A stretch of 64,000 bases of DNA from an uncultured Eubacteriales bacterium (GCA_964584935.1 CAZPBN010000012.1:17094-81093), one strand, 5' to 3'; positions 2,754-50,400 are shown, counted from the stretch's first letter. A program made the numbers and translations. The notes: generated by a model from the letters alone, not told the origin.

Positions 2754-2782
2754 TTTTTTCTCCTTTCTCACATCTCCTTTAT

Positions 2783-18665: not shown

Positions 18666-20105
18666 TTAAATCTTCCCATTCTTATGTTTATTTTTGTAGA
18701 TTGTCACCCATTTCTCTATAATTTCTGCCAAGGTTCGTTCCACTTCGACTCCCCTTCCGTGTATGGGACGAATTTCTTCGGCAAGCTCTGTGTATCCGAG
18801 ACGATCCAGCCAGGTAGAAAAGTAATCATTATCGCTGAATTTTTGGATTTTTTCAGGCTTTATTGTTTTTAAACTATCCAGGAGCTCACGGAGAGTGAAT
18901 ATTTCTTTATCCCCTATGACCAAAGGAGTTGTTTTAACATTATCCATGGCTTTTTTAAAAATCTGTTTTAAAAAAGCCACCATCTTTTGTCCTTTATATC
19001 GAAGGGGAAGAATTTTATCAGCAAGATCTTTGAATCCATGCATATACAGCCAGGTAGAAAAATTATCCTTTCTTCCGTACTCCTCAAGAATTTGGCGAAG
19101 TTGACGCCCATAAGCCGTATCTTTTTCAGCCTTATTGAAGATGTCTATCATTTCATTGGTATTTTTAACCCGCTCCAGCTCTTTCCCTTCTTTTGAAAGA
19201 ATAACAAAATCTCCCATGCCCGTGAAATCATGAATATAATTCCTCAGGGTTTTTAAGCTGCCTGGATCTCCTTTGGGGAGGATAAAGGCTGTGGTGCGAA
19301 GGTCATCGGCTTCAGAAGCTTTAGAGGCAATTATTTTCGGGAATCGCGGGAAATATTTATCGACCAGACGAATGAAATCAGCCCCCACATCTGGTTTCAT
19401 TTCTCCGCCCCGAGGGAAATAGATGTCAGAGATAAGACACACAACATCATCCCCGTATCCTTTATTGGCATAATCGGAATCGTTGATCATTGATTCATCC
19501 CGAACGCCAAACAGAAATTCCATTGCTTGTTCAAAAGTGCGTGCGATTTGAACCGCTGCTCTCTGTCCTATAATATCATAAAGAACCGGAATAAACTGGG
19601 AAATCCAGCGGGGCTCATCATCCACCACCAGAATGATGTAACGGCGTGCCTTTGAATAGTTTTCAATATTGAGTTTATCCTGTGCACTCCTTACCACAGA
19701 AGTGATGATACGAGCAGGAGTACAATCTTTCTTATTGGAAGCAAATATCAAATCTGCTTTTTTGGTGTAAGGATATTTTTCTTCTGATACCGACGGAGGA
19801 GAACATTGAATCATATCAATGGCTGATATCAAAACAACTGCCACATCTTTATTGCGCCTGCGGATTTTTTGAGTATCCAAAAGGTTTAATCCTGTATCAT
19901 CACACACTAAGACAAACGCTTGACTTCGTTTCACCTGCTCTGCTTCGCCGGGATTGGAAAGAACACAAACTTCCACCCACGGCATTTGGTCTTCAAGAAC
20001 TTGGCCGGACTTTTTAACTTCTTCATCAGCAGACAATATCAATACTTGATTTATTTTTACCGGATTGACGACGCGGGGATAAAAGGAGTTGACTGAATTC
20101 AGCAT
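18666..20105 (-). CDS. Double receiver-domain protein (pseudo-REC + canonical REC) with duplicated C-terminal domain of unknown function
   Basis: REC2 has the acidic pocket VVDDE, phospho-acceptor LISDIYFP, IIASKAS, ILPKG. REC1 is degenerate (LILSADEE...LVCDD). The C-terminal ~190 aa contain two copies of D(N/Y)FSTWL...G(F/Y)x(D/E)LA(D/E)(K/E)IxP. Confidence 0.5.
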   Translation of the reverse strand: MLNSVNSFYPRVVNPVKINQVLILSADEEVKKSGQVLEDQMPWVEVCVLSNPGEAEQVKRSQAFVLVCDDTGLNLLDTQKIRRRNKDVAVVLISAIDMIQCSPPSVSEEKYPYTKKADLIFASNKKDCTPARIITSVVRSAQDKLNIENYSKARRYIILVVDDEPRWISQFIPVLYDIIGQRAAVQIARTFEQAMEFLFGVRDESMINDSDYANKGYGDDVVCLISDIYFPRGGEMKPDVGADFIRLVDKYFPRFPKIIASKASEADDLRTTAFILPKGDPGSLKTLRNYIHDFTGMGDFVILSKEGKELERVKNTNEMIDIFNKAEKDTAYGRQLRQILEEYGRKDNFSTWLYMHGFKDLADKILPLRYKGQKMVAFLKQIFKKAMDNVKTTPLVIGDKEIFTLRELLDSLKTIKPEKIQKFSDNDYFSTWLDRLGYTELAEEIRPIHGRGVEVERTLAEIIEKWVTIYKNKHKNGKI

Positions 20106-20113
20106 GTCTCCCC

Positions 20114-21841
20114 CTACTTCTCAGAAACGATCACACATTTCTGTTTGTTGGAATCAGCATAGATATTGACCGGTGTGGGAAATTTTCGTATAAAAATGGG
20201 ACTGTTTGTTTCAGGCGAGGAAAAGAACCAGGGATCAATATGATCCTCCAGAGGAGCAATATATCCATAAATTACCCTGTTGCTCATGAGATTTGTTAAA
20301 AAATGAGTCCCTTGGGTTCCAAACATACGGGTCCGAAGCCTTTTCTGTTCTTCATCAAATCCCCCCTGAATCATATAGAGAAAATGGCTCCCGTATATTC
20401 CCCCACCCGTGAGAGTATCATGCACTGGCTCCGATCTCGCTGCTATATCCACGCCGTATTCGAAAATAGCTGATGGCGATCCAACGTTCTCAAACTCCAC
20501 TTGAATTCCCCAATTACGGTTTTTTGTTCCCAACCTCCCCGGAACAATGATAATATAGCTCTTTCCCTGATTTTTAAGAGCACAGGAAAATTCACTCAAT
20601 TTTGCAACCACATCATCATGCATTTCTTTTTTATAGAGAAAAGGAGACACAACAACAGCACATTCAACATTTTTTTTCATGCCATGGCCCTGCAGATTCT
20701 GCAGGGAGAGATATGTTTTCTTCACTTTGTCAGGAATCCTCACCTTTTCGAATGTCATCTTTGGTAAAGGCGTTAATTGGACTACATGAAAAGTACCATT
20801 TCTTTTTATGTCTTTCAAGTGTTCCACATTAAAAACAAATTCAATTTGAAAGTGAGGCATCACCTTGGAAGTGATTGCTTCCATAATCTCGATAAGTCCG
20901 GTTCGGAATTCATACATATCATCTTGAACTAAAGCTTCGAGAGTGATCCATTTTTTTTCTCTTCCCAGTGCTTTGGTGGTATGATAATCGGCAAAACGGA
21001 TATGAAGCCTCCTCATGGTTTCCATTTCATCTCCTCTGAGGCTGGAGTTTTTTGTCATATCAATCGCATAGAAGAATTTTTGGCCTTCCCCCATGAATTT
21101 TACTGGAATAGGATTCTTGATGGTTGCCATAGAAATGACCGGAAAGTCATCTAAAACAGTCGCGTATCCATGACCAAAAGCCAACCGGGCAAATCCTTCA
21201 TTGGCTACCTGGGATTTCAAAGCATAGGGAAAAAAAGAGTTTGCTACCCCAGAGACCAGGGGGCAATAAACAGGGCCTGCCAAAGATTTCCAGCTCATTC
21301 CAGGAATGGGATTAATGACGATAGCCATTTTTTCCCGGCTGTTTGAATCCTGTTTCATTTTGAAATCGGAGTAAATGTTATCAATGGCTTGTATAAACTG
21401 ACGAAAACGTATGGATAAGTCAGGATGATTATTGGGAAGCATGAACGATGTATTCTCGCCAGCATGGACAGAAACATCATCTCGGGAAACAAAAGCTTCG
21501 TTCGTGGCAGAGGAACGAATACTTATAGGAATTTCTCCCAGTTTACTTAAAATATCTTTGATTGTCTCCAGGTCATTGTTATTAAATGTTCCTCCGTTTT
21601 TTAGATAGCGGTCATAATAAGAAGTTGTAAGAATTCTCGTTCGAAGCTGGTGCACCCGGGGAATGTGGTGTTCGTTGATTTTGATAAGACCATACCCTTT
21701 CCCTCCTGAAAATCCCTGGCCATATATTTTGACATCTCCAACTTTATCAACTATGTTTTCTCTCAGAATTTTGTTAGAGTCAGAAGCGTCATTGTTGTAT
21801 TTTTTTTGACCCATGTTCATCGATGAATCCCCGCTTATCAT
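20114..21841 (-). CDS. PEP-synthase/PPDK N-terminal nucleotide-binding (PPDK_N) domain protein lacking the PEP/pyruvate TIM-barrel domain
   Basis: SGGKGYGL; IRSSATNEA...SVHAGENTSF, which parallels VRSSATAEDLP..SFAGQ in PpsA/PPDK. 575 aa. The C-terminal ~150 aa are unassignable. 8-nt gap to the downstream REC gene. Confidence 0.55.
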   Translation of the reverse strand: MISGDSSMNMGQKKYNNDASDSNKILRENIVDKVGDVKIYGQGFSGGKGYGLIKINEHHIPRVHQLRTRILTTSYYDRYLKNGGTFNNNDLETIKDILSKLGEIPISIRSSATNEAFVSRDDVSVHAGENTSFMLPNNHPDLSIRFRQFIQAIDNIYSDFKMKQDSNSREKMAIVINPIPGMSWKSLAGPVYCPLVSGVANSFFPYALKSQVANEGFARLAFGHGYATVLDDFPVISMATIKNPIPVKFMGEGQKFFYAIDMTKNSSLRGDEMETMRRLHIRFADYHTTKALGREKKWITLEALVQDDMYEFRTGLIEIMEAITSKVMPHFQIEFVFNVEHLKDIKRNGTFHVVQLTPLPKMTFEKVRIPDKVKKTYLSLQNLQGHGMKKNVECAVVVSPFLYKKEMHDDVVAKLSEFSCALKNQGKSYIIIVPGRLGTKNRNWGIQVEFENVGSPSAIFEYGVDIAARSEPVHDTLTGGGIYGSHFLYMIQGGFDEEQKRLRTRMFGTQGTHFLTNLMSNRVIYGYIAPLEDHIDPWFFSSPETNSPIFIRKFPTPVNIYADSNKQKCVIVSEK

Positions 21842-37670: not shown

Positions 37671-38993
37671 ATGAAATTAAAAACTTTTACCCACGGCATT
37701 CATCCTCCTGAACACAAGCAGAGAACAGAAGAAAAAAAAATAGTTCCCTTCACATCTCCAGAGAAGGTGGTCATTCCTCTGAACCAGCACTTCGGGAAAC
37801 CGGCTGAACCAATTGTCAATAAAGGGGATGAAGTCCTTCTCGGCCAGAGAATTGGAGAAAGCACAGCTTTTTGCTCAGCCCACATACACTCCAGCGTTTC
37901 AGGAAAAGTCTTATCAGTCGATACTTATTATCATCCTGTCTGCGATTCTTCCCTTGCTGTCACCATAAAAAACGACGGAGAAGATCGCTTATCTCCTGAA
38001 CGGAAAGGATACAAAGATCCCTTTTCTTTGCCCCCTGAAAAAATCCAAAACGCTATCAAGGAAGCTGGGATCGTAGGCCTGGGAGGAGCGGCTTTCCCCA
38101 CAGCTATCAAACTGGCTCCTCCAAAAGACAAGCCCGTTGATACCCTCATCATCAACGGTTGTGAATGCGAGCCCGTGCTCACTTCTGACTATAGACTGAT
38201 GCTGGAGCATCCAGACGATATCCTTAAAGGGGCAGAGCTCGCCCGAATAGCCTCTGGCGCCAAACGGATCATTGTCGGTATTGAAGACAACAAGAAAAAA
38301 GCCTATGACCATTTAAAGGAAAAAGCCAAAACAATTCCGGCAGAGATCGCTCTCCTCAAAACAAAATATCCCCAGGGAGCAGAAAAGAATTTAATCCATG
38401 CTCTTCTTAAAAAAGAAGTTCCACGCGGAGGGCTTCCTTTTGATGTTGGAGTGGTTGTCCAAAATGTGGGAACAGCCAAATCCATTTGGGATGCCCTGAG
38501 TGAGGGGAAACCTCTCTATGAAAGAGTAATAACTGTTTCTGGAAATGGGATAAACAATCCGAAAAATATTCTGATCCGGCTAGGAACTCCTTTTCAGGAT
38601 GCCATCGATTTCTGTGAAGGAATAACCGAAGATGCCAACATTATTGTCATGGGTGGCCCTATGATGGGAATTGCCCAATGGACTCTCGAAGCACCTGTCA
38701 TCAAAGGCACCTCTGGGATTTTGGTTTGGGAAGCTGAACCTTCCAAGCAAGAATATTCTTGTATAAAATGTGGCCGTTGTGTTGAACACTGTCCTATGAG
38801 ATTGTCTCCGACCCAGCTGGCAAAATATGCCCAATTTGACAAATTAGCAGAGGCAGAAGCCTGGGGTATTCTGGACTGTGTCGAGTGTGGATGCTGTCAG
38901 TATTCCTGTCCTTCAAAAATTCCTCTTGTCCACTGGATACGCCTGGGCAAAAACAAAGTCGCCTGTTTAAAAAGGAAGAATAACGCCCGATGA
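37671..38993 (+). CDS. rnfC: Rnf complex subunit C (NADH-binding, 2x[4Fe-4S])
   Basis: RnfC N-terminal barrel sandwich, GxGGAxFP-like GLGGAAFPT, two ferredoxin motifs CIKCGRCVEHCP and CVECGCCQYSCP. Confidence 0.9.
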   Translation: MKLKTFTHGIHPPEHKQRTEEKKIVPFTSPEKVVIPLNQHFGKPAEPIVNKGDEVLLGQRIGESTAFCSAHIHSSVSGKVLSVDTYYHPVCDSSLAVTIKNDGEDRLSPERKGYKDPFSLPPEKIQNAIKEAGIVGLGGAAFPTAIKLAPPKDKPVDTLIINGCECEPVLTSDYRLMLEHPDDILKGAELARIASGAKRIIVGIEDNKKKAYDHLKEKAKTIPAEIALLKTKYPQGAEKNLIHALLKKEVPRGGLPFDVGVVVQNVGTAKSIWDALSEGKPLYERVITVSGNGINNPKNILIRLGTPFQDAIDFCEGITEDANIIVMGGPMMGIAQWTLEAPVIKGTSGILVWEAEPSKQEYSCIKCGRCVEHCPMRLSPTQLAKYAQFDKLAEAEAWGILDCVECGCCQYSCPSKIPLVHWIRLGKNKVACLKRKNNAR

Positions 38994-39952
38994 AGGAACG
39001 ATCATTATTCATCCAATCGTCCCCTTTCTTCACTGACAAAGATTCCACTCCAAAAATAATGTACACGGTGATTCTGAGTCTCGTTCCGGCAATCTTTTCA
39101 TCGATTTATTTTTTCAGGATGAAAGCTTTCTTCATTTTCATATCCAGTATCGCAGCCTGTATGATAACCGAAGCCGTGATTCTCTGGATCAGGAAGAAAC
39201 CGTTGAATTCAGTTCTGGACGGATCTGCCATCATAACAGGTCTTCTTCTGGCGATGACTCTTCCCCCTTCCCTACCCCTGGAATTTGTGGCCATTGGCGC
39301 TGTGGCTGCCATTGCCATAGGAAAACAGGTTTTCGGCGGGCTGGGGTACAACATATTCAATCCTGCGTTGGTAGGAAGAGCCTTTCTGCAAACCGCTTTT
39401 CCTGTGGCAATGACAACATGGACTCCTCCCATAACTGTTAAAGTCGACCTTTCAACCTTTGCCACTCCTCTGGCTGATTTAAAATTCGAAGGAATCCTGG
39501 CTTCTCTCAAAGACCTTTTTTGGGGGAATACAGGGGGCTGCATTGGAGAAACATCCGCTTTGGCCCTCATTCTGGGAGGCCTTTATCTTCTCTACAAACA
39601 GACCATTGACTGGCGTATTCCTGCAGGGATTATTCTTTCCTTAAGTGCTTTCACCGGGATTTTCTTCTGGCTGATCAATGACGATAAATACGCGTCTCCA
39701 GTATTTCATATACTCTCCGGGGGACTGCTCATTGGAGCTATTTTTATGGCGACTGATATGGTCACATCCCCCATAACTCCGCGCGGAAGCTGGGTTTATG
39801 CTGTGGGTATCGGAATCAATATTGGACTTATCCGTCTTTTCGGAGGGTTCCCGGAAGGAGTTATGTATTCCATTCTGTTCTGGAATACATTTGTTCCTTT
39901 GATCAACCGTTACACCCGGCCAAAAATCCTGGGAGAGAGGAGGAATTTATGA
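38990..39952 (+). CDS. rnfD: Rnf complex subunit D (NqrB/RnfD family)
   Basis: 320 aa polytopic membrane protein; FMN-attachment region SGGLLIGAIFMATDMVTSP. Confidence 0.85.
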   Translation: MKERSLFIQSSPFFTDKDSTPKIMYTVILSLVPAIFSSIYFFRMKAFFIFISSIAACMITEAVILWIRKKPLNSVLDGSAIITGLLLAMTLPPSLPLEFVAIGAVAAIAIGKQVFGGLGYNIFNPALVGRAFLQTAFPVAMTTWTPPITVKVDLSTFATPLADLKFEGILASLKDLFWGNTGGCIGETSALALILGGLYLLYKQTIDWRIPAGIILSLSAFTGIFFWLINDDKYASPVFHILSGGLLIGAIFMATDMVTSPITPRGSWVYAVGIGINIGLIRLFGGFPEGVMYSILFWNTFVPLINRYTRPKILGERRNL

Positions 39953-40554
39953 ATCTTTCTTTGAGGATGATTCTGGTCTTGACATCTGTGGGCCTTCTCT
40001 CCGGGATTCTCCTCACTGGAGTCAATCTGGCGACAAGAGAAAGAATCGAAGAAAACAAACAACAAGAAATTAAAGATGCCATCACTGACGTCGTTCCTGG
40101 CACTCAATCCAGCCCGGTCATCCATGATGAAGAAAATCTTACTGTCTACAAAGGAACGAACAAAAAAGGGGAAACGACAGGGTATGCCATCTACTCTTCG
40201 GGCACAGGCTTCCAAGACAAAATCACCATTATGCTGGGGATTGATTCGTCTCTTTCCAAAATAAACGACCTTGTTATTCTAGAACAGACAGAAACACCCG
40301 GGCTGGGAGCCAAAATTACAGATGAAAAACTTTTCTTGCGGTTCTGGAAGAATAAGGACATCCGCCAACCATTGACACTTCATGAACCGGCTGTCAACGC
40401 CCCTAATAAACTCGGCCCTTCAGAAGTTAACACAATCACGGGAGCAACCATATCCTCTGAAGCGGTCTTAAATATAGCCAATAAGTCCATAAATCAGGTG
40501 AGATCCCTGTTGGACAAAGAAAAATATAAGAGCAAGGAAAACAATGGCAACTAA
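39949..40554 (+). CDS. rnfG: Rnf complex subunit G (FMN-binding)
   Basis: N-terminal TM anchor, FMN_bind motif TITGATISSEAV. Confidence 0.85.
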   Translation: MNLSLRMILVLTSVGLLSGILLTGVNLATRERIEENKQQEIKDAITDVVPGTQSSPVIHDEENLTVYKGTNKKGETTGYAIYSSGTGFQDKITIMLGIDSSLSKINDLVILEQTETPGLGAKITDEKLFLRFWKNKDIRQPLTLHEPAVNAPNKLGPSEVNTITGATISSEAVLNIANKSINQVRSLLDKEKYKSKENNGN

Positions 40555-41155
40555 AAGTCTCAGTCAAGAATTTGTCAAAGGCTTGTGGGAGGAAAATGCT
40601 GTGTTCCGGCAACTTTTAGGAATGTGTCCCACCCTTGCTGTAACCAATGCGGTTATCAACGGGATTGCCATGGGATTAGCCACCACATTTGTTCTCGTCT
40701 TCAGCTCCCTGGTCATATCATCAATCAAAAAAATAATCCCCAATCAGGTACGCATTGCCTGTTATATTGTGATCATTGCCACTTTTGTCACCATGGCAGA
40801 CCGCTTTCTCGCTGCCTTCTTCCCTCCCATATCCAAGGCACTGGGTCCTTATGTTCCTCTTATTGTGGTGAATTGTATCATCCTGGGAAGACAGGAAGCT
40901 TTTGCTTCAAAAAATCCGGTAGGACGCTCCCTTATCGATGCTTTGGGCATGAGCACCGGCTTTATAATGGCTCTGCTCATACTAAGCTCTATAAGAGAAC
41001 TCCTGGGCACAGGTGCCATTCTGGGATATCAAATAATGGGAACCTGGTTCAAGCCCTGGACCATTATGATTCTCCCTGCAGGAGCATTTATAACCCTGGG
41101 CTTATTACTGGGACTTTTTATTTTTATTGAAAATAAAATAAATCCAAGGAGATAA
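40544..41155 (+). CDS. rnfE: Rnf complex subunit E
   Basis: 203 aa, 6 TM, RnfE/NqrD family. Confidence 0.85.
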   Translation: MATKSLSQEFVKGLWEENAVFRQLLGMCPTLAVTNAVINGIAMGLATTFVLVFSSLVISSIKKIIPNQVRIACYIVIIATFVTMADRFLAAFFPPISKALGPYVPLIVVNCIILGRQEAFASKNPVGRSLIDALGMSTGFIMALLILSSIRELLGTGAILGYQIMGTWFKPWTIMILPAGAFITLGLLLGLFIFIENKINPRR

Positions 41156-41157
41156 AT

Positions 41158-41733
41158 TTGGAACTTATCGCTATTTTCATATCCGCCATATTGATCAACA
41201 ATTTTGTTCTCCATTATTTTCTTGGAATCTGTCCCTTTCTGGGAGTATCAAAAAAAATTGACTCTGCTCTTTCCATGGGACTAGCGGTTACCTTCGTCAT
41301 GACGATCACAGCAGTGGTCTCATGGGTCATCAACAACTGGATTCTCATTCCTAAAAATCTTGACTTTTTACAGATTGTATCATTCATTCTCATCATCGCT
41401 TCTCTGGTTCAACTGGTCGAAATGTTTATCCGTAAAGCAAGCCCTCCTCTTTACCAAGCTCTGGGAATTTATCTCCCCCTCATCACAACCAACTGTTCGA
41501 TCATGGGGCTGGCTCTTCTGGCGGCTCTGAAAGAATATTCATTCTTAGAAGCTGTTGTTTTTGGAATGGGATCTGGAATTGGATTCACCCTCGCCATCGT
41601 ACTGATGGCTGGCATCAGAGAACAATTAGACCTGGCGGATGTGCCGGAGCCTCTAAAAGGCGCAGGCATTTCTCTGATTGTTGCCGGAATCATGGCTCTT
41701 GCATTCTTAGGTTTTTCAGGGATGATAAAATAA
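41158..41733 (+). CDS. rnfA: Rnf complex subunit A
   Basis: 191 aa, 6 TM, RnfA/NqrE family. Confidence 0.85.
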   Translation: MELIAIFISAILINNFVLHYFLGICPFLGVSKKIDSALSMGLAVTFVMTITAVVSWVINNWILIPKNLDFLQIVSFILIIASLVQLVEMFIRKASPPLYQALGIYLPLITTNCSIMGLALLAALKEYSFLEAVVFGMGSGIGFTLAIVLMAGIREQLDLADVPEPLKGAGISLIVAGIMALAFLGFSGMIK

Positions 41734-42569
41734 TGGATTTATTGTGGCCAATTATCACAATGGGTGCCTTGGGGCTCCTGTTCTCAACAGGTCTTGTCTT
41801 TGCCTATAAAAAGCTGAAAGTCTCTATAGATCCAAAAATAGAACAAATTTCAGAGCTGCTTCCCCAGGCTAACTGTGGAGCCTGCGGATTCAGCGGGTGC
41901 CAGGCTTTTGCCGAAGCAGTTGTCAATAATAAGGTTAATCCGAGTGAATGCCCTATTAGCGGAGATGAGACTGCTGAACAAATTGCAGATATACTGGGAG
42001 TGAAATCCGAAGAGAAAAAAGTAAAAAAAGTAGCTCGCATTCTCTGCCGGGGGACCAAAGAAGCCGCCAAAGAGAAAGGGCAATATCTAGGAGTTCCAAG
42101 CTGTGCTTCCGCGCATCTAATTGGAGGGAATAAGAGCTGTTCTTTCGGATGTTTGGGTTTCGGAGATTGTGCTCGAGCCTGCCCTTTTGATGCAATTGAG
42201 ATGAAAGATGACGGTCTCCCTCATATCATCGAAGAAAAATGCACGGCATGCGGAATTTGCGTTGAGGAATGTCCAAGAAATATCATCGAACTTTTTCCTC
42301 TTTCCCAGAATATATTCGTTTTCTGCCGATCCCACGACAATGGCAAGATCTCAAGAAAAGTCTGTAAAAACGCCTGCATTGCTTGTAATATATGTGTCAG
42401 AGCTTGTCCGGAGGCTATCGTTCTCGAAAACAATCTGGCGAAAATCACGGACGTTAAAAAAATTGATGAAGATAAAATTCCTGCCAGCCAGAAATGTCCC
42501 ACAGGAGCTATAGGACTTCTCAAAAAGGAAGACAATAAGGATAACGATAAGGATAATGATGAAAGATAA
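41733..42569 (+). CDS. rnfB: Rnf complex subunit B (polyferredoxin)
   Basis: N-terminal TM, CGACGFSGC motif, multiple CxxCxxCxxxCP ferredoxin motifs, Asp/Lys-rich tail. Confidence 0.85.
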   Translation: MDLLWPIITMGALGLLFSTGLVFAYKKLKVSIDPKIEQISELLPQANCGACGFSGCQAFAEAVVNNKVNPSECPISGDETAEQIADILGVKSEEKKVKKVARILCRGTKEAAKEKGQYLGVPSCASAHLIGGNKSCSFGCLGFGDCARACPFDAIEMKDDGLPHIIEEKCTACGICVEECPRNIIELFPLSQNIFVFCRSHDNGKISRKVCKNACIACNICVRACPEAIVLENNLAKITDVKKIDEDKIPASQKCPTGAIGLLKKEDNKDNDKDNDER

Positions 42570-42996
42570 AGCATTCGTTATAAAAACTGAAAAAAACGGC
42601 ATGGCGCAAGTCAAAGTCACTCCTTCAATCCCTTGTCAAAAATGCCGGGCAAAGGACCTATGTGTAGGAGCCAAACAACATAACGGGCTTTTGAGAGTCA
42701 AAAATCAAATCAATGCTCAAGAGGGAGATAATGTCATCATAGAAATTCCGGATACATATTACAATAAAAATCTCATCTTTCTTTTCACTTCTCTTCTTTT
42801 GGCTTCTCTCTTGGGGATGACTGCCGGGTATCTATTGTCTTCATTCATTCCCTTCTCCCCTCAGACCACAAGTGTGGCTGGGCTTTTTGTTTCAGTTGTC
42901 ATAGCTGGAGTTGTTCTTTTTCGCATACTCCGCAAGAAAAACAATTCAGATTTTTTTCCGGTTATAATAAATATACAGGGAGGTTCTCATGGATAG
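42556..42996 (+). CDS. rseC: RseC/MucC family protein (Rnf-associated, SoxR-reducing-system component-like)
   Basis: 146 aa; N-terminal Cys cluster CQKCRAKDLC followed by two TM helices; overlaps the rnfB stop. Confidence 0.65.
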   Translation: MMKDKAFVIKTEKNGMAQVKVTPSIPCQKCRAKDLCVGAKQHNGLLRVKNQINAQEGDNVIIEIPDTYYNKNLIFLFTSLLLASLLGMTAGYLLSSFIPFSPQTTSVAGLFVSVVIAGVVLFRILRKKNNSDFFPVIINIQGGSHG

Positions 42997-43720
42997 ACGC
43001 AATTTCTTTAAAAAAGTACTGGTGACACCAGCTCTGTTTCCTTTTCTTTTTGCATCCAAATCGCAAAACCACTCTTTTGATCTCTTTATCATCTCAGAAA
43101 AACCATCTTCCATTCTCATTAAACTATTGGAAGGGCTAAAAGTATACGGTATGAATCCCGGGAAGAAATTTTCTTTTTTAAATAAACATCCTAAGGAAAA
43201 ATTTCTTATAAAAACTCTCTCCGGCAAAGGATTGAAACTCACCCAGAAAAACCAATGGGCAGATTTCACTCTTAGTTTCAGCCGTTTGCAGCGTTCCTGC
43301 TTTCCTTCATTCTCATTAGTCAAAGAAGGAAACTTGTTGGATATCAGATCCAGAGATCTCTATTCCCTGTGGAAAAAAATGAGCAAGAGTCAGCCTTCAT
43401 CCATGGTCACCGTTGCGACGTTCCAATCCAATTACAAATCATTGAACCCAGGAAAAACAGCTTCTGTCTTCATAAATGGAGAAATGACAGAGAAAATAAG
43501 TTTATATAATAATGCCGTTAAAACCTATCATCTTAAAAATGGAACAATAAACGTTGTGGTTTCTGAAAGAAAAGCCTGGATATCCGATTCGTGCTGTCCC
43601 CAAAAGATTTGTTTATATTCCACACCCATATCACTGGAAGGCGAAAGAATTATCTGTGCTCCCAATCATTTCCTTATACAAATAGACTCTTCTTCTTTGA
43701 TTGACACTGTCATCGGATAA
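42989..43720 (+). CDS. Tat-signal (RRNFFKK) exported protein of unknown function, translationally coupled to rseC
   Basis: MDRRNFFKKVLVTPALFPFLFAS twin-arginine signal. C-terminal Cys motifs SDSCCPQKICL and IICAPN. No assignable domain. Confidence 0.4.
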   Translation: MDRRNFFKKVLVTPALFPFLFASKSQNHSFDLFIISEKPSSILIKLLEGLKVYGMNPGKKFSFLNKHPKEKFLIKTLSGKGLKLTQKNQWADFTLSFSRLQRSCFPSFSLVKEGNLLDIRSRDLYSLWKKMSKSQPSSMVTVATFQSNYKSLNPGKTASVFINGEMTEKISLYNNAVKTYHLKNGTINVVVSERKAWISDSCCPQKICLYSTPISLEGERIICAPNHFLIQIDSSSLIDTVIG

Positions 43721-43760: not shown

Positions 43761-44870
43761 TCAAATTTTCATCGGCATTAATACATATGAGTATTCCATG
43801 TCTTCTTCTGATTCAGGCCGCATCAGGACTGCATTATTCTCATCTTTTAATTCAAATCGGACCTTATCTGATTTCACTGTTGACAAAAAATCAAGTAAGT
43901 ATTGGGAGTTAAATCCTATTTCGATGTTTTTCCCTTTATAATCGATATCGATCTTATCTCTGGCTTCACCTATCTCTGGGTTCGAGGAAAACAGCCTGAT
44001 TTTATCCTTTTCTATAAAAAATTTGACTCCTTTTGACCTTTCCGTGGAAAGTAAAGAAACTCTTCGTATAGAACTGGCAAGCTCTTCTCTGGAGAGGACT
44101 AAAGTATTGGGATTGTCTTTGGGAATGACTGTTTCATAGTTAGGAAATTTTCCTTCTATAATACGAGAAACCAGTATTCTGTTGTCCGTTTTGAAAAACA
44201 AATTGTTTTCGTCCAAATCAAACTCTATATTATCTTCTTCAAATTTTTTCAACTCATTCAATGTTTTCTTGGAAATGATCACACTGATTTCATTCTCCAA
44301 TTTCAGTTTTTCTAACATTCTTGACGTATAAGCCAATCTATGACCATCCGTGCTTATGAGTTTAACGTTGTTGTCGCTGAGACTAAGTAGAGCACCATTT
44401 AAATAATACCTGTGTTCCTGAGTTATGGCATAAAACACACCATTGATCATTTCTTTCAATTTCTCCAAGGGAAAATTTATGTTTTTTTCAAATTTAGGTA
44501 TTGGCACTTGGGGATAATCTTCTTTAGGCAAACATAGAACCTTGAATTCAGATACTCCTGACTTGATTTCCATTACTAAATCGCTTCCTTCTGTGAACGT
44601 TATTTTTTTATCATCAGGAAGGGATTTGATTATTTCAAAAAGTTTCGTTCCTGAAATGGTGGTTGCACCTGGTTCTTCAACAGACGCATCTGAAATTGTT
44701 TTGAGTCCTACTTCAAGGTCTGTTCCAATCATATTGATATAATTTTCCGATGTTTCAATCAGTATATTTGCAAGAATGGGCATTGTATTTCTCTTTTCAA
44801 CGATTCCTTGAAGTAATGATAGTTCTGTAAAAATCTTTGTTTTATCCACTGTAAATTTCATTTTATTCAC
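43761..44870 (-). CDS. dnaN: DNA polymerase III beta sliding clamp
   Basis: 369 aa, MKFTVDKTKIFTELSLLQGIVEKRNTMPILANILIE N-terminus, GTG start. Confidence 0.9.
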   Translation of the reverse strand: MNKMKFTVDKTKIFTELSLLQGIVEKRNTMPILANILIETSENYINMIGTDLEVGLKTISDASVEEPGATTISGTKLFEIIKSLPDDKKITFTEGSDLVMEIKSGVSEFKVLCLPKEDYPQVPIPKFEKNINFPLEKLKEMINGVFYAITQEHRYYLNGALLSLSDNNVKLISTDGHRLAYTSRMLEKLKLENEISVIISKKTLNELKKFEEDNIEFDLDENNLFFKTDNRILVSRIIEGKFPNYETVIPKDNPNTLVLSREELASSIRRVSLLSTERSKGVKFFIEKDKIRLFSSNPEIGEARDKIDIDYKGKNIEIGFNSQYLLDFLSTVKSDKVRFELKDENNAVLMRPESEEDMEYSYVLMPMKI

Positions 44871-44880
44871 CTTTCAACAG

Positions 44881-44940
44881 TATATTTATATATTATTATT
44901 ATTTATTAATAAAGATATAATATTAAATAAATACACTGTT
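44881..44940. other. AT-rich candidate DNA unwinding element between dnaA and dnaN
   Basis: About 60 nt at >90% AT (TATATTTATATATTATTATTATTTATTAATAAAGATATAATATTAAATAAATAC). DnaA-box-like TTATCCACT (44842-44850) and TTATTCACC (44863-44871) lie at its edge. Confidence 0.4.
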
Positions 44941-44978
44941 GATTTGTATAAAACTTTTGTAAGATATTGATTTCACTG

Positions 44979-46307
44979 TTATATACTCTCTGTCAAGTTG
45001 TTTATTTCTCTGTTAAAATTTTGATTATCACTTCTTAATTTCTCTATTTTCCTTATGCTGTGAATTACAGTGGTGTGGTGTTTTCCGCCAAATTTTTTTC
45101 CAATTTCCGGTAATGATGTTTTTGTCAATTCCTTTGAAAGATACATTGCGACCTGACGGGGGAAAGCTATTTTTGGAGAGTTGTTTTTTGATTTAAGCTG
45201 AGACAGCTTTATTTTATATTTATGACAAACTAACTTTTGTATTTTTTCCACAGTCACAACGGTTGAAGAGGATGATAACAAACTGTTCAGAGCTTCTTTT
45301 GTGATATCCATATCGATTTCTTTTCCTTTTAAGGAGGAATAAGCAATCACCCGTCTTAGATATCCTTCCAATTCCCTTATATTAGAGTGAACTTTGTCTG
45401 CAATGAATAAGGCAATACTTTCTGGTAAAGAAACTCCTTCCATCTCTGCTTTTTTATTAAGAATGGCAATTCTGGTTTCGATATCAGGCGGTTTGAGATC
45501 GGCAATTAAACCCCATTCGAAGCGGGAGCGGAATCTGTCTTCAAGATTTCGAATTTCTTTGGGTGAGCAGTCACTCGATATCACGATTTGTTTTTGGTTG
45601 TCGTAAAGATGATTGAACGTATGGAAGAATTCTTCTTTTGTTCTTTCCCTGCCAGAAAGGTAATGAATATCATCCATTAAAAGGACATCAATGGTTCTGT
45701 ATTTTTGACGAAAATCAAGAATTTTTCCGTATTGAAGATGATTGATCAAATCATTCATAAATTTCTCTGTTGTTATGTATAAGATTTTCTTCGCCGTGGA
45801 ATTCTCAAAAACACAATGCCCTATGGCATTCATTAAGTGTGTCTTTCCAAGACCAGCTCCCCCATAGATGAATAGAGGGTTGTAAGATTTTGTTGTCTTT
45901 TTTGCGACAGCTAAAGCAGCCGCATGGGCAAACTGATTGCATGAGCCCACCACAAAATTATCGAATGTGTAGTTGGGATTGAGATTTGGATTTAAAAGAG
46001 TCCCGTGCTTCACTCTTCTTTCATAGGGAGCCCGGCGGATGAACGAAGACGGGGTTTCATTATATATATATTTTATATCATAAATTTTATTGAATACTTC
46101 ACTCGAGCATTTGTTTATGAGCGATGAATAATGAAAAGAAAGCCAGTCCTTGAAGTATGAATTGGGTACTTTGACATAGAGACTGTCGGCTTCATCTCCG
46201 ATGTAACTTGTGGGTTCAAACCAGGTTTCAAAGCTTTTCCAATCGATTTTTTTCTTGATTTCATTTAAGATTTTCTGCCAAAGATTAATCTTTTCTGTAG
46301 GTTCCAT
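44979..46307 (-). CDS. dnaA: Chromosomal replication initiator DnaA
   Basis: 442 aa, Walker A GGAGLGKTHLMNAIGH, DnaA domain IV HTH at the C-terminus. Confidence 0.95.
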   Translation of the reverse strand: MEPTEKINLWQKILNEIKKKIDWKSFETWFEPTSYIGDEADSLYVKVPNSYFKDWLSFHYSSLINKCSSEVFNKIYDIKYIYNETPSSFIRRAPYERRVKHGTLLNPNLNPNYTFDNFVVGSCNQFAHAAALAVAKKTTKSYNPLFIYGGAGLGKTHLMNAIGHCVFENSTAKKILYITTEKFMNDLINHLQYGKILDFRQKYRTIDVLLMDDIHYLSGRERTKEEFFHTFNHLYDNQKQIVISSDCSPKEIRNLEDRFRSRFEWGLIADLKPPDIETRIAILNKKAEMEGVSLPESIALFIADKVHSNIRELEGYLRRVIAYSSLKGKEIDMDITKEALNSLLSSSSTVVTVEKIQKLVCHKYKIKLSQLKSKNNSPKIAFPRQVAMYLSKELTKTSLPEIGKKFGGKHHTTVIHSIRKIEKLRSDNQNFNREINNLTESI

Positions 46308-46319
46308 TTAGAGACATCA

Positions 46320-46351
46320 GTTTTCCACACACTTATCCACAGCTGTGGAAA
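46320..46351. promoter_or_regulatory. DnaA-box cluster upstream of dnaA (oriC / dnaA autoregulation)
   Basis: TTTTCCACA (46320-46328), perfect TTATCCACA (46332-46340) and inverted TGTGGAAAA (46343-46351) within 32 bp. Confidence 0.6.
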
Positions 46352-46439
46352 ACCTCCTTTAAATTGGATTTTTTGAAGACAAATCGAAGTTATAATAGCA
46401 TGCTTATTTTTGGATTTCAAGCAATTTTATATTTTTTTT

Positions 46440-49373
46440 TTAAAAGTCAAAACCGATCCATAATTTCGTCTCAAAATTATCTGTGACATCGAGGTCAAAG
46501 GGACTTGAAATATCAGAAATACCAATTCTTTTCACAAATTCAATGTGAACAGGAAACCCGAGGAAGAAGAACTGGAAACCAAAACCGTAGGAACCCAAAG
46601 CATCGAAAACGAGAAGACCTTGTTCGTAATCAAATATATAAATATGACTTCCATATCCCTTGATTTTTGCTCTTGACATATCAAAAAATATTGTTCCCCG
46701 GACAGGACCGATTTGGCCGATTAATGTGGATGCATTATTGATCACCGGAAACCTGAATTCTATATTGGCATACCAGCCTTCATTGGCAATGATGCTGTAA
46801 TAATAGGCAGAACGCACCTGGTTGTTTCCTCCATAGTAAAAAACGAATGGATTTTCTCCGAAACTGGAGAATCCTTTGAATCTCGTGGCAAAAAGAAAAT
46901 CACCGCCCAGATAGAGGTACTGTCTGAGATCTGCTTCGAGGGTTGTGTTGTCAATAAAGTTGCTGGTAATGGGAATGGACTGACGGGCAGAAAGACTGAA
47001 GGTGTTTCCTGTGAAAGGACCATATGATTTGAATCGGGTTGTTTCTCCCACAAAAGCAAGAGATGCCGCAAGGAGATTGCCATTCCAGAATTGGCCGAAA
47101 TTGGAAGTGGTGAGATAGGCAAAATCTTCTTCATAGTTGTAAAAACCCAAACCGGCTTCTAAACGGAGAAACTTGCTTAGAGGATAAAGGGCTTGCAAAA
47201 AAACTCCTGTAATTTTGCGGGTGGCAATGGCTTGGTCGTATGATAATCTGTAATATAAGGTCGGATCGAAGTAATAATATTCAGGATAGTAAAATATTGT
47301 GTAGTGAAAAGCGCTCGCCATATACTGCAACCGTCTTTTTCTATTGATAAAAGAAAAACTGTAGGAACGGAATGTCCTTACCTGGTAGGCACTCAGAGTA
47401 AAAGTGTAGTCTTGAAAAAGGTCTGAAAACGATATGGACGTTCCTCCAAAGATGGAACCGTCGGTTGTGACCAGAGCTTCAACTGGAGGTTTTGAAGTCA
47501 GGAAAAATTTTTGCATTCCCTTATAAGGGCTGATTTTCTTTTCGTTTATATCAAAAGTGAGAATGGGCTCAAATTTTTGGTATTCTTCATCTGATTCCTT
47601 TTTCTCAAATTGGATTGTTCTTTCTTCTGTTCCTTCAAATTCGCTTATGTACACTTGGAAAGCGCTTTTGTTGAAGGATGAGAATAAAATTTTTTTGGAA
47701 TCAGAAGGAAGGGGAGTGGGAAGGAAATTTCCAGTTCTGACATCAGTGTATCTGACAAGCTTTCCTGTATCTAATTCCAGAGAATATAGATTGTAAGCAT
47801 CCCTTTGGTCTCCGGAGAAATATATTTTTTTGGAGTCAGGAGAGAAACAGGGAGTTATTGAGTTATTGTCACCAAAAGTCAACTGTGTTTTTTCCCTTAA
47901 ATCATTTGCCGGGGAAAGAAAAAGCTTGTCATATTCCCCGATATGAATTGTGTAGGCAATCAGCTTGCCATCCGGTGATATTGTGGGGGCTTTTTCAAAT
48001 AAATCATCGTTGGTTAACTTTTTTGTTTTCTCTGTAGAAAGATTTATTTTAAAGATATCGTGTTTTCCTTCGTGAAAGGCAGAAAATAAAAGCTCTTTTC
48101 CTCCAGGGTAAAAACAGGGAGAGGAAGGCTGGTCAAAAGGAATCTCAATTTTTCTCATTGTCTTTCCGGTGATAGAGTCGAGAAGAATAAGAGAATGTTT
48201 TTCCCCAACTCTTCCAAAAATTGCCAAGGTATTCCCGTCATCAGACCAGGACAAATCTCTTCCTTTTGAAGGGAAAATTTCGCTTTTGATATATTCGTAT
48301 TTGAGAGTATAGCCTTTGGTTATATTCTTAATAACAGAACCGTCTTTGACGGAGAGCAAGAGAATATCGCTTTCCCCGGATTTGACATTAATGGTTATGG
48401 TTGCAAGAACTTCTCCTGAAGGAGAAAGAGTATGAGAATAATTGAAAAAGTAAGGGTTGACCGGATAATTAGGACCAATTGGGAGGCTGTAATCTTCAGG
48501 ATTGCCTCTTAAAAAAAAGTCTTTATACCGGTTTCTCAGGTATTTTTTAAATTCGTGATAAAATTGCTTGAAGTCTTTATCAAAGACGTCATTGATGATT
48601 GGCTGCTTTTTAACAATTCCAAGACGAGGAAATTTCTTCATAGAATACCAAAGGTTCCTGATATACGCTTTTCCGTATTTTTCTTCGATGAATTCATAGA
48701 TAGCATGTCCAAAATTATAAGGGATCCTGAGCATAGGATAATTAGATTTCAAGGAACCATCCTCGGTTAAAACAGGAATCCGGTCGTTAAGAACAGCATC
48801 TCTGACCACTAAAGAGTCAAGAGTATTCCAGGTTTTGCTGTTGTATTCCGAGAATCCTTCCATGATCCATAGGGGAGGTTGGGAAAGGGTGTATAATGAG
48901 TTCCCTGGGCTTCCCCATAGAAGGTCAAACTCAAAAATATGGGTTAATTCGTGTTCTATAAGATTCTGCATTTCATCGAGAGTCATATCTCCCCTGATCA
49001 CCAATCGGTGAAGAATCGGTTCAGCAAATCCTAATACGCCAGGACTGACTCGCCCCAGATTCGTTTGTTCAAAGTCCGTGGAGGTTAAATAGTAAATCAG
49101 GGGAACCCGTTGAGAAAGATGATGCCTGAGAACCTGGCTTATTTGTTGGTAGGCGCTTTCAGCCATATTGGCAATTTCTTTGAGAATTTCTGGGGTTTTG
49201 ACATAATAGTAGATGTCGAAATGCTCAGTCTTATAGTGTTCCCATTGAATATTTTTATAAATGACTTTATTTTTTCCGTAATAAGGAAAATACACAGATT
49301 GGGCAAGAACAGAAGGAATTAAAAAAGATGAGATAAGAAGAAACGTTATGAGAATTGAAATATTTTTATTCAT
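46440..49373 (-). CDS. Secreted outer-membrane protein: HExxH zincin-like N-domain + PD40/TolB-type beta-propeller + C-terminal Omp85-like beta-barrel
   Basis: Signal peptide LIPSVLAQS; HELTHIFE...EGFSEY gluzincin-like motif; five PD40-like repeats (SPSGEVLA, DDGNTLAIFG, PGGKELLF, SPDGKLIAY, SPDSKKIYF); C-terminal ~400 aa rich in amphipathic beta-strands, ending ...LWIGFDF with terminal Phe. Confidence 0.5.
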   Translation of the reverse strand: MNKNISILITFLLISSFLIPSVLAQSVYFPYYGKNKVIYKNIQWEHYKTEHFDIYYYVKTPEILKEIANMAESAYQQISQVLRHHLSQRVPLIYYLTSTDFEQTNLGRVSPGVLGFAEPILHRLVIRGDMTLDEMQNLIEHELTHIFEFDLLWGSPGNSLYTLSQPPLWIMEGFSEYNSKTWNTLDSLVVRDAVLNDRIPVLTEDGSLKSNYPMLRIPYNFGHAIYEFIEEKYGKAYIRNLWYSMKKFPRLGIVKKQPIINDVFDKDFKQFYHEFKKYLRNRYKDFFLRGNPEDYSLPIGPNYPVNPYFFNYSHTLSPSGEVLATITINVKSGESDILLLSVKDGSVIKNITKGYTLKYEYIKSEIFPSKGRDLSWSDDGNTLAIFGRVGEKHSLILLDSITGKTMRKIEIPFDQPSSPCFYPGGKELLFSAFHEGKHDIFKINLSTEKTKKLTNDDLFEKAPTISPDGKLIAYTIHIGEYDKLFLSPANDLREKTQLTFGDNNSITPCFSPDSKKIYFSGDQRDAYNLYSLELDTGKLVRYTDVRTGNFLPTPLPSDSKKILFSSFNKSAFQVYISEFEGTEERTIQFEKKESDEEYQKFEPILTFDINEKKISPYKGMQKFFLTSKPPVEALVTTDGSIFGGTSISFSDLFQDYTFTLSAYQVRTFRSYSFSFINRKRRLQYMASAFHYTIFYYPEYYYFDPTLYYRLSYDQAIATRKITGVFLQALYPLSKFLRLEAGLGFYNYEEDFAYLTTSNFGQFWNGNLLAASLAFVGETTRFKSYGPFTGNTFSLSARQSIPITSNFIDNTTLEADLRQYLYLGGDFLFATRFKGFSSFGENPFVFYYGGNNQVRSAYYYSIIANEGWYANIEFRFPVINNASTLIGQIGPVRGTIFFDMSRAKIKGYGSHIYIFDYEQGLLVFDALGSYGFGFQFFFLGFPVHIEFVKRIGISDISSPFDLDVTDNFETKLWIGFDF

Positions 49374-49385
49374 AGCGGCTCCTCG

Positions 49386-50066
49386 CTATTTTGTAATGAG
49401 GTGTCTTTGTTGAAATTTTTTTCCTTCCAGGATGTCACGAAAAAGCCTGATTTTTATCTTTCGCATAAGTTCATAGAAGGCAAAATATGATGTTTGATTG
49501 GGATTCTTGTCACTCTTTGATTCTTCAAATTTGTTATTGTAAAGAATCTTTCCAGATTGTGAGTCAATAAAGTAGACGGTTAGAGTCAGTTTGAAAAACT
49601 TTCTTTCTGCCAATCGACTCCTTTCTTCAAAAGGATCTTCAAAACGGCCTCCTTTTAAGTTTTTAATAAACTTTCTGATTTGTTTTTCATACCCAATCTT
49701 ACCCGTAAGAAAAACCGTTTTATCCTGGGGGGAAAGAGATTTCCAAAAAGTTTTGTCTTTGAACACCTCATCTTTTTCAAATTTCAGTTTATCAGAAGAA
49801 ATGTTTCCTTGAAATTGCGATCGGACCTCGGAAATGAAAAAATCCTTGGTTTTGTCATTGAGATCAAACTCTAATTTTTCATCTGGAACAATAAAATCCA
49901 GAACAACAAAATTTTTATATTGATTGATAGAGAAATTTTGTTCACCAGGGACATCGATTTTAATCTTTATATTCTGGGAAGAACAGGAAAGAAATAAAAA
50001 AACCGGAAGAAAAATAATGATGAACTTAATTTTTATCTTTATTTTTTTCATTTTTGTCCGTTTCAA
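49386..50066 (-). CDS. Putative lipoprotein
   Basis: Lipobox FLFLSC at the N-terminus; 226 aa, no known domain. Confidence 0.4.
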   Translation of the reverse strand: MKRTKMKKIKIKIKFIIIFLPVFLFLSCSSQNIKIKIDVPGEQNFSINQYKNFVVLDFIVPDEKLEFDLNDKTKDFFISEVRSQFQGNISSDKLKFEKDEVFKDKTFWKSLSPQDKTVFLTGKIGYEKQIRKFIKNLKGGRFEDPFEERSRLAERKFFKLTLTVYFIDSQSGKILYNNKFEESKSDKNPNQTSYFAFYELMRKIKIRLFRDILEGKKFQQRHLITK

Positions 50067-50400
50067 TGAGTTTTATGAGACGTTCAAAATTAGATTTGAT
50101 TAATTCATTATCCGGATCAAGTTTTAATGCAATTTCATATTCGCCTTTGGCTTTTTCCCATTGTCGTTTTACTTCATAAGCGACAGCCAAATTGTTATGT
50201 GCTGCGGCTGAGTCTGGATTGGATTCTATAATTTTTTTCCAGCGGAAGAGGGCTTCATCCCAGAGATTTTTCTGCGCTGCTTCTACTCCAAATTGAAGTT
50301 GAGATTCATAATAAGAGGAAGCACATGAAATGAAAAGGGACAGGGTAAGAAATAGAAAAATGCAATATAAAAATGCCCTTTGCTTATTCATTTTCATCAT
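50026..50400 (-). CDS. TPR-repeat lipoprotein
   Basis: Lipobox LFISCAS; TPR consensus AAAHNNLAVAYEVKRQWEKAKGEYEIALKLDPDN. Confidence 0.5.
   Translation of the reverse strand: MMKMNKQRAFLYCIFLFLTLSLFISCASSYYESQLQFGVEAAQKNLWDEALFRWKKIIESNPDSAAAHNNLAVAYEVKRQWEKAKGEYEIALKLDPDNELIKSNFERLIKLIETDKNEKNKDKN

Follow-up and report, generated by a model that had tools for sequence, protein, structure and literature searches.

A peptidase-like, propeller-bearing Omp85 protein encoded with two small lipoproteins next to dnaA in Candidatus Aminicenantes

The Omp85/TpsB superfamily was divided into ten subfamilies, one of which was named 'WD40-like' (Heinz and Lithgow, 2014; Front Microbiol 5:370, PMC4104836). 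Members of this subfamily combine PF01103 with PF07676 repeats and lack POTRA domains (Table S2 of that study), an absence that is known for the WD40-like, Metallo and noNterm subfamilies alike, and for the approximately 95 WD40-like proteins of Table S3 the templates comprise a BamA/TamA barrel, TolB and a 'best aminopeptidase hit', the latter including tricorn factor F3, aminopeptidase A, ERAP1 and ColH/ColT collagenase. It was speculated in the main text that the group resembles a BamA-BamB fusion (PMC4104836), and a paper of 2024 ascribed to it 'divergent WD40 and peptidase domains' (PMC11358297). A 977-aa protein encoded on the minus strand (46440..49373, stop codon included) in a 64,000-nucleotide stretch of DNA from an uncultured bacterium (GCA_964584935.1, CAZPBN010000012.1:17094-81093; the whole of this stretch is called the window) is a member of the WD40-like subfamily: it has the same three-part architecture, and the fold templates found for it are the proteins of Table S3. 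Its architecture had therefore already been catalogued, and the protein is less novel than was implied by the original prediction, which was made from the sequence of the window. The 2014 study, however, is a catalogue only, without analysis of catalytic residues, gene neighbourhood, function or partner genes, and its main text mentions neither Acidobacteria nor Aminicenantes (PMC4104836). Two points appear to be undescribed: the conserved partner genes upstream of the large gene, of which no description was found in open-access papers or on bioRxiv, and the adjacency to dnaA, which is limited to Aminicenantes. The reading that we favour, and consider probable, is that the protein is a catalytic enzyme anchored in the outer membrane, facing the periplasm and acting together with two partners.

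Several other described systems share parts of this design. The barrel of the 977-aa protein is homologous to that of BamA, with the loop-6 (L6) RG(F/Y) motif, the β13 motif and a C-terminal aromatic strand, and the module to which it belongs also holds a propeller (compare BamB), a tetratricopeptide repeat (TPR) lipoprotein (compare BamD) and another small lipoprotein (compare BamC/E). On the other hand, BamA carries POTRA domains, and BamB is an eight-bladed lipoprotein whereas the propeller here is six-bladed, of the TolB type and fused to the barrel; the TPR protein, half as large as BamD, lies outside the BamD family. A Zn-metallopeptidase is likewise found in BepA, an M48 protease with TPRs for which docking on BAM has been described (PMC13478230, PMC8423444). 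The peptidase domain here is instead part of the barrel protein itself and folds as an M1/M9/M30-like gluzincin, not as M48. The position of an enzyme domain N-terminal to an Omp85 barrel is shared with PlpD and other patatin-like Omp85 proteins, and the patatin enzyme domain of PlpD is periplasmic (PMC11116518); PlpD differs in being a lipase with one POTRA domain that forms homodimers, whereas the 977-aa protein has a peptidase and a propeller. TolB also has a six-bladed PD40 propeller, but it is soluble and carries an N-terminal α/β domain, whereas the 977-aa protein is barrel-embedded and does not have that domain.

Domain architecture of the 977-aa protein

It can be stated with high confidence that the protein consists of a signal peptide, a gluzincin-fold peptidase domain, a six-bladed TolB-like propeller and a BamA-type barrel without POTRA domains. 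The Pfam scan of the query itself gave PD40 only, with no Peptidase_MA or Omp85 match, and homologues, profiles and structure prediction were therefore needed to establish both of these domains. The AlphaFold2 model of the full-length protein, built with 48 homologues, has a mean pLDDT of 81.1 and a pTM of 0.73. The signal peptide, read from the sequence, covers residues 1-24 (SVLA/Q; 49302..49373, minus strand), and in the model an N-terminal helix spans residues 3-24 and runs into a disordered stretch. Q25 is nearly invariant.

The peptidase domain (residues ~40-295; 48489..49256, minus strand) carries the GFAEP, HELTH and EGFSEY motifs as well as Y219. It is a mixed β/α domain that reaches a pLDDT of 84.7 when modelled alone, has the thermolysin-like catalytic fold of gluzincins and resembles an M1 aminopeptidase or an M9 collagenase. 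HELTH corresponds to residues 141-145 (48939-48953) and EGFSEY to residues 172-177 (48843-48860), both with checked translations. H141, E142, H145, E172, G173 and Y219 are invariant in 27 diverse family members, whose identity to the query is 28-57%, and the invariance of the catalytic motif extends across 48 Aminicenantes sequences. The HExxH motif and the downstream Glu that is the third zinc ligand of gluzincins (clan MA(E)) are thus conserved as H141, E142, H145 and E172; by analogy with M1 and other gluzincins, all of the residues that would be needed for Zn-dependent peptide hydrolysis are invariant. The original prediction had proposed a signal peptide and an N-terminal gluzincin-like motif (HELTH...EGFSEY), and had made this reading depend on the conservation of HExxH in homologues; both motifs are present and HExxH is conserved throughout the family members aligned.

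We take the pattern HExxH-x26-EG(F/L/M)(A/S)E, in which a Tyr follows the first His at a distance of 78 residues, to match the M1 pattern HExxH…(W)LNEGFA…Tyr. GFAEP (residues 115-119) lies 26 residues before H141 and presumably occupies the place of the M1 GxMEN motif, with a spacing similar to that from GGMEN to HExxH in LTA4H, so that the HExxH/Glu/Tyr spacing and the GxxE strand 26 residues upstream would together resemble the M1 layout. The Glu of the GFAEP strand is not invariant and is replaced by S or T in several family members. Among Pfam families, the sole match of the N-terminal domain of the query is a weak one to DUF2268 (E 0.07). Distant homologues score 14.8-30.1 bits against Peptidase_MA_2 (PF13485; cutoff 32.4), and some Aminicenantes homologues carry a precomputed PF13485 mark.

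The propeller (residues ~297-586; 47616..48485, minus strand) consists in the AlphaFold2 model of 24 strands arranged in six four-stranded blades. Five blades had been counted in the original prediction, and this number has to be corrected, since the model and the best structural matches, namely the six-bladed TolB, NHL and sialidase folds, all give six. TolB is the best match of the propeller in both sequence and structure. A TolB orthologue was nevertheless rejected: the score against the TolB equivalog TIGR02800 is 91.4 bits, far under the cutoff of 343, and comes from the propeller part only, and the N-terminal α/β domain of TolB is missing. The propeller repeats also match the Tricorn_N, Tricorn_2nd, DPPIV_N and APH-like_N models (precomputed Pfam marks on homologues included), a likeness to the propeller-gated peptidases tricorn, DPP-IV and the S9 oligopeptidases. 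Tricorn_N, Tricorn_2nd and DPPIV_N are propellers that gate peptidase active sites. These enzymes are serine peptidases, however, whereas the catalytic domain here is that of a metallopeptidase.

The linker between propeller and barrel (residues 587-640) is too short for a POTRA domain, and the query has no match to PF07244. It leads into an Omp85-type 16-strand β-barrel (residues ~624-977; 46443..47504, minus strand), assigned from the model, Foldseek and profiles, in which 15 confident long antiparallel strands and a weak β1 are modelled over residues 624-973 and which ends in WIGFDF. Foldseek places the barrel with BamA of F. johnsoniae (9n2f_A, 3.2e-8) and with the barrel of E. coli BamA (6qgy_A, 5.8e-8, TM 0.56 normalised to target). 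The profile of the whole family, compared with PDB sequences, finds BamA at 9e-9 (F. nucleatum) to 2e-6, and a profile of the barrel only matches E. coli BamA at E 5e-7. The distant homologue P0218 passes PF01103 (44.2 bits, cutoff 24), and several relatives carry a precomputed PF01103 mark. The C-terminal outer-membrane barrel of the original prediction is in this way borne out by Foldseek, by profiles and, through P0218, by PF01103. A soluble β-sandwich was considered for the same region and rejected on account of the BamA homology (Foldseek 3e-8 to 6e-8; profile 5e-7).

In the HMMER alignments, the family consensus FyfGGnntlRg aligns with BamA FYAGGSSTVRGF, 'plRgklfvdlg' falls on BamA SVRTSFFWDMG and the terminal 'fdfwiG' on FQFNIG; from BamA structures we take these three BamA segments to be the L6 motif, the β13 motif (F-x-D-x-G) and β16. 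With these anchors the model counts 16 strands and the loop at residues 840-864 corresponds to L6. This loop holds GGNNQVRS (residues 848-855; 46809..46832, minus strand), the counterpart of the BamA loop-6 (V/I)RG(F/Y) motif, in which G848, G849 and R854 of GGxNxxR are invariant in the 27-member alignment, most members having LRGF/Y where the query has VRS. A barrel-only sequence search, which covered 1.84 billion representatives, returned 709 clusters at E <= 1e-3 and 276 at E <= 1e-10; most of the full-length matches are ~930-1050 aa long and match at the C-terminus. Within the 64-kb window no second Omp85 barrel was found, nor any canonical BamA, BepA or TolB.

The three-gene module and its small lipoproteins

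Two short genes precede the large one on the minus strand. The first encodes a 124-aa TPR lipoprotein (50026..50400; open reading frame [ORF] and Pfam TPR_2) and the second a 222-aa lipoprotein (49386..50054; the ORF runs 50066..49386 and the ATG at 50054 is the likeliest start). The end of the TPR gene overlaps the start of the 222-aa gene by 29 nt, and the 222-aa and 977-aa genes are separated by a 12-nt gap that contains GAGGAG; the overlap and the close spacing suggest that the three envelope genes form an operon. The three co-directional genes for secreted proteins, among them two for small lipoproteins, that had been predicted ahead of dnaA were all recovered as ORFs, and the lipobox cysteines of both small proteins are invariant in orthologues. 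More than 100 full-length homologues of the 977-aa protein at 55-64% identity were found, and the genes are therefore real and not chance ORFs.

The 124-aa protein has a signal peptide, a lipobox (FISC/A, Cys26) and ~2-3 TPR motifs at residues 32-105, with Pfam matches to TPR_2 (E 2.3e-9) and TPR_11 (E 2.4e-8); Cys26 and a core motif W..A..RW...E..P.SAAAHNNLAVAYE are invariant in its orthologues. It does not match the BamD/YfiO family model, only generic TPR models, and its best NCBIfam matches (PilW, GltE and Tgl) are all far under their own cutoffs. Residues 34-78 also match the C-terminal end of Pfam DUF6340 (25.0 bits, cutoff 26.4). The 222-aa protein (lipobox FLSC/S, Cys24) is fast-evolving: a word-index search gave one near-identical homologue only, and positional orthologues align with it at ~40% identity, Cys24 being invariant. 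No Pfam family was found for it in the local Pfam scan, and a 12-member profile of its family found nothing below E 0.35 in the PDB. Weak matches to Pfam FlgT_M occur in 5 of the 12 members (best E 0.008). FlgT_M is described as resembling the N-terminal domain of TolB, and this is the domain that the 977-aa protein does not have.

The extent of the module was followed in a scan of one genome per species, in which at least 554 loci encoding relatives were found. The best 80 of these are from Aminicenantes and from further Acidobacteriota, among them Vicinamibacteria, Marinacidobacterales and Luteitalea. Upstream partners were sought with tblastn and local family HMMs among upstream ORFs of <= 350 aa; the TPR family HMM is found directly upstream in at least 61 loci and the HMM of the middle protein (the 222-aa family) is detected in at least 59, counts that are lower bounds, since the filter or a wrong-frame ORF (as at L044) hid the middle gene in some high-GC loci. 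The order TPR protein, ~200-aa protein, large protein, dnaA and dnaN is seen on three Aminicenantes contigs. Wherever the upstream sequence of an Aminicenantes locus is long enough, the large gene is almost without exception preceded by the TPR and lipoprotein genes, and the same holds for most of the remaining Acidobacteriota loci that were fetched (Vicinamibacteria-labelled, Marinacidobacterales and others). Additionally, three distant metagenomic lineages (L084, L085 and L087), whose large protein is ~30% identical to the query, have the same three-gene order in entirely different neighbourhoods, with HMM matches of E 2e-30 to 1e-38 for the TPR protein and 7.5e-17 to 2.5e-29 for the middle protein. 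The same order upstream of homologues that are only ~30% identical indicates that the three-gene module is old and is a unit under selection. In these distant lineages the small proteins in some cases carry an ordinary signal peptide or anchor in place of the lipobox, so that envelope secretion, not lipidation, is the conserved feature.

Topology and possible roles

Both termini of a 16-strand Omp85 barrel would lie in the periplasm. From this, from the L6 and β13 lumen motifs kept in the barrel and from the periplasmic enzyme domain of PlpD, the one enzyme-bearing Omp85 protein known to us for which topology has been examined by experiment, it follows that the peptidase and the propeller most likely face the periplasm, hanging, by analogy with PlpD, from the inner face of the outer membrane. 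The barrel would anchor the enzyme in that membrane, and the propeller may act as a filter that lets only unfolded chains or peptides reach the active site, as propellers do in tricorn, DPP-IV and S9 enzymes. The TPR protein and the 222-aa protein could be partner subunits on which substrates or other partners dock. The most probable role would then be that envelope proteins are processed and matured by proteolysis, or undergo quality control, at the outer membrane, comparable to that of BepA at BAM, though any specific substrate class is proposed with less confidence than the periplasm-facing enzyme as such. A more far-reaching version, in which BamA-, BamB-, BamD- and BepA-like parts have been brought together in one ancient module as a self-contained outer-membrane proteolytic machine that serves an undescribed quality-control or maturation step, is speculative, and we give it considerably less than an even chance. 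The outer-membrane-embedded protease or scaffold of the original prediction is supported in all three of its domains.

Several observations weigh against the periplasm-facing enzyme. The peptidase domain of the query stays under every Pfam peptidase threshold, that of Peptidase_MA_2 included, and its closest structural relatives comprise endopeptidases (M9, M30) as well as aminopeptidases (M1), so that its specificity could be of either kind. The query has no match to PF01103 at E <= 1 while its homologues pass, and the link to Omp85 is therefore transitive or profile-based. In the model the linker has low confidence and β1 is the least confident strand of the barrel. The Vicinamibacterales/Luteitalea-type loci (L068, L069, L072-L080, L082, L083 and L086), where the large protein is ~1040 aa long, have no TPR or lipoprotein genes upstream, an absence that was confirmed among the called genes at L086; the partners have been lost, moved or replaced in this clade and are not obligatory for this type of protein. 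Finally, no experimental study of activity, metal binding, topology, partner or substrate was found in the open-access and bioRxiv literature.

Among the rival explanations, it is conceivable that the Omp85 barrel exports the peptidase and propeller as a passenger to the cell surface, following the original type Vd model for PlpD, and the displayed protease would there degrade external proteins or peptides to feed an amino-acid-fermenting Aminicenantes cell. The order of an N-terminal passenger and a C-terminal barrel resembles that found in patatin-like Omp85 proteins (PMC4104836), the closest folds of the N-terminal domain are secreted collagenases and M30 proteases, and the two glutamate dehydrogenases encoded in the window would fit amino-acid catabolism. 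However, the passenger of PlpD itself stays periplasmic (PMC11116518), and the L6 RG and β13 motifs, which plug and stabilise the lumen in BamA, are conserved here. The protein has neither a POTRA domain nor a type Vd linker, and its gene lies in a conserved operon with lipoproteins and in a housekeeping neighbourhood. Moreover, a folded two-domain passenger of 560 residues would have to pass through a 16-strand barrel, an export for which we know of no precedent. Surface display is for these reasons judged unlikely.

An equally unlikely alternative is a non-proteolytic insertase or scaffold of the BAM kind, in which the barrel would carry out insertion in the Omp85 manner, the propeller would act as BamB, the TPR lipoprotein as BamD, and the gluzincin domain would serve for binding only. 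The remark of Heinz and Lithgow on the likeness to a BamA-BamB fusion (PMC4104836) agrees with it, as do the BamA signature motifs kept in the barrel, the conservation of a TPR lipoprotein partner and the poor order in the model of β1, the strand that forms the lateral gate in BamA. Against it, HExxH, the Glu of the third ligand and Tyr219 are strictly invariant down to 28% identity, which argues for retained catalysis, and the TPR protein, with 124 aa and 2-3 repeats, does not match BamD/YfiO. BamA and TamA use POTRA domains to receive their substrates, and such domains are absent from the 977-aa protein.

A third explanation likens the protein to TolB as an envelope tether, whose propeller would bind a Pal-like or peptidoglycan-associated partner and so tie the outer membrane to the cell wall or to the Tol system. 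The standing of TolB as best match of the propeller speaks for such a tether, but it is very unlikely, given a TIGR02800 score (91 bits against 343) and a missing N-terminal domain that set the protein apart from TolB, the absence of adjacent pal or tol genes, and an invariant catalytic motif and an Omp85 barrel that a tether would leave unexplained.

The dnaA neighbourhood and the meaning of the family

The region 43761-50400 holds five minus-strand ORFs, all co-directional, of which the last two, downstream of the large gene and outside the envelope module, are dnaA (44979-46307) and dnaN (43761-44870), both identified from the ORF and the Pfam annotation of orthologous loci. Three DnaA boxes (46321..46352) lie in the 132 nt that separate the 977-aa gene from dnaA; the box at 46333 is perfect (TTATCCACA), and the other two each have one mismatch. 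In the window, 34 DnaA-box matches were counted against 18.3 expected, and nowhere but at 46321-46352 do three of them cluster within 300 nt. Boxes placed upstream of dnaA are commonly part of its autoregulation or of oriC, and this cluster belongs to dnaA/oriC and not to the envelope operon. A σ70-like TTGAAA-17-TATTAT is found before the boxes at 46420..46392 (minus strand), a kind of match that is no commoner in this region than in shuffled sequence. No terminator-like site or hairpin was found after the 977-aa gene and before dnaA, and read-through into dnaA would therefore be possible.

The minimum of the cumulative GC skew lies at ~45.0 kb, inside dnaA. The change of sign at ~45 kb places the envelope operon on the lagging-strand side, transcribed toward the origin and head-on to replication, and dnaA and dnaN are co-directional with replication. 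The 108-nt spacer between dnaA and dnaN (44871-44978) is 84% A+T; the origin is likely split around dnaA, and there is no long intergenic oriC region nearby.

Among the loci fetched, dnaA and dnaN follow the large gene only in Aminicenantes, and even there two exceptions (L010 and L013) have the three-gene module but neither dnaA nor dnaN within the next 3-4 kb downstream. The presence of the module in unrelated neighbourhoods elsewhere makes the adjacency to dnaA a lineage-specific synteny and speaks against a functional link; we infer that it is peculiar to Aminicenantes and without functional meaning. The unusual placement next to the origin that the original prediction had stressed is therefore real insofar as the operon abuts dnaA and the origin, whereas its conservation is confined to Aminicenantes and no functional link is seen. 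That the operon is coupled to replication initiation, by read-through into dnaA or by attachment of the origin to the membrane, is scarcely credible: the order of large gene, dnaA and dnaN kept in nearly all Aminicenantes loci, the gap free of terminator-like sites and its three DnaA boxes would suit such a coupling, but the module stands in unrelated neighbourhoods in other Acidobacteriota and in the three distant lineages, L010 and L013 do without dnaA downstream, dnaA has its own promoter-like site, and boxes in front of dnaA are generally expected.

The nearest homologue of the 977-aa protein, with 98% identity, is encoded in a Candidatus Aminicenantaceae metagenome-assembled genome (MAG), and the full-length homologues at 55-64% identity are likewise from Aminicenantes; judging from these sequence relatives, the source organism is a Candidatus Aminicenantes bacterium (Acidobacteriota). 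Many public MAGs with an Aminicenantes-type locus (54-60% identity and the same dnaA synteny) bear the title 'uncultured Eubacteriales bacterium' or 'Clostridiales bacterium' (loci L006, L007, L011, L015-L018, L020 and others, and protein P0332), and these taxonomy labels look wrong. Neighbouring genes, identified from sequence and from the Pfam annotation of orthologous loci, encode a family-9 glycosyltransferase of the heptosyltransferase type, a histidinol-phosphatase-like hydrolase and RelA/SpoT, and point to a lipopolysaccharide-bearing diderm. On the far side of dnaN, 37671-43720 (plus strand) holds an operon for the Rnf complex, an RseC-like gene and a gene for a 243-aa NusG_II-domain protein, an arrangement kept in L001 and partly in L002. 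Further away are two glutamate dehydrogenase genes, at 15607-18483 and 1272-2771 (both minus strand), one of which encodes a 958-aa enzyme of the large NAD-GDH type with GDH2_N, GDH_2nd and Bac_GDH_CD; the pair is consistent with amino-acid catabolism in the source organism. Two adjacent long ORFs at 18666-20105 and 20114-21841 (both minus strand; 479 and 575 aa) match no Pfam family at E <= 1e-5.

Omp85 proteins have a central part in the biogenesis of the outer membrane, and several of the POTRA-less subfamilies recognised in 2014 are without an established function. For the family described here, a catalytic motif that is invariant throughout predicts a real enzyme, and two conserved partners predict a complex. 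The distribution is wide, with at least 554 species-level genomes in the motif scan and 276 clusters (50% identity) that have a barrel match at E <= 1e-10. Cultivable carriers of the subfamily probably include Gemmatimonas aurantiaca, Myxococcus, Cytophaga hutchinsonii, Rhodothermus and Vibrio vulnificus. For annotation, Omp85-family metallopeptidase would be preferable to the current labels 'PD40 domain protein', 'Tol biopolymer transport component' and 'hypothetical protein'. If the 977-aa protein is indeed a barrel-anchored periplasmic protease, it would represent a second solution to the quality control of outer-membrane proteins beside BAM-BepA and, after PlpD, a further case of an Omp85 scaffold that has been reused to anchor an enzyme.

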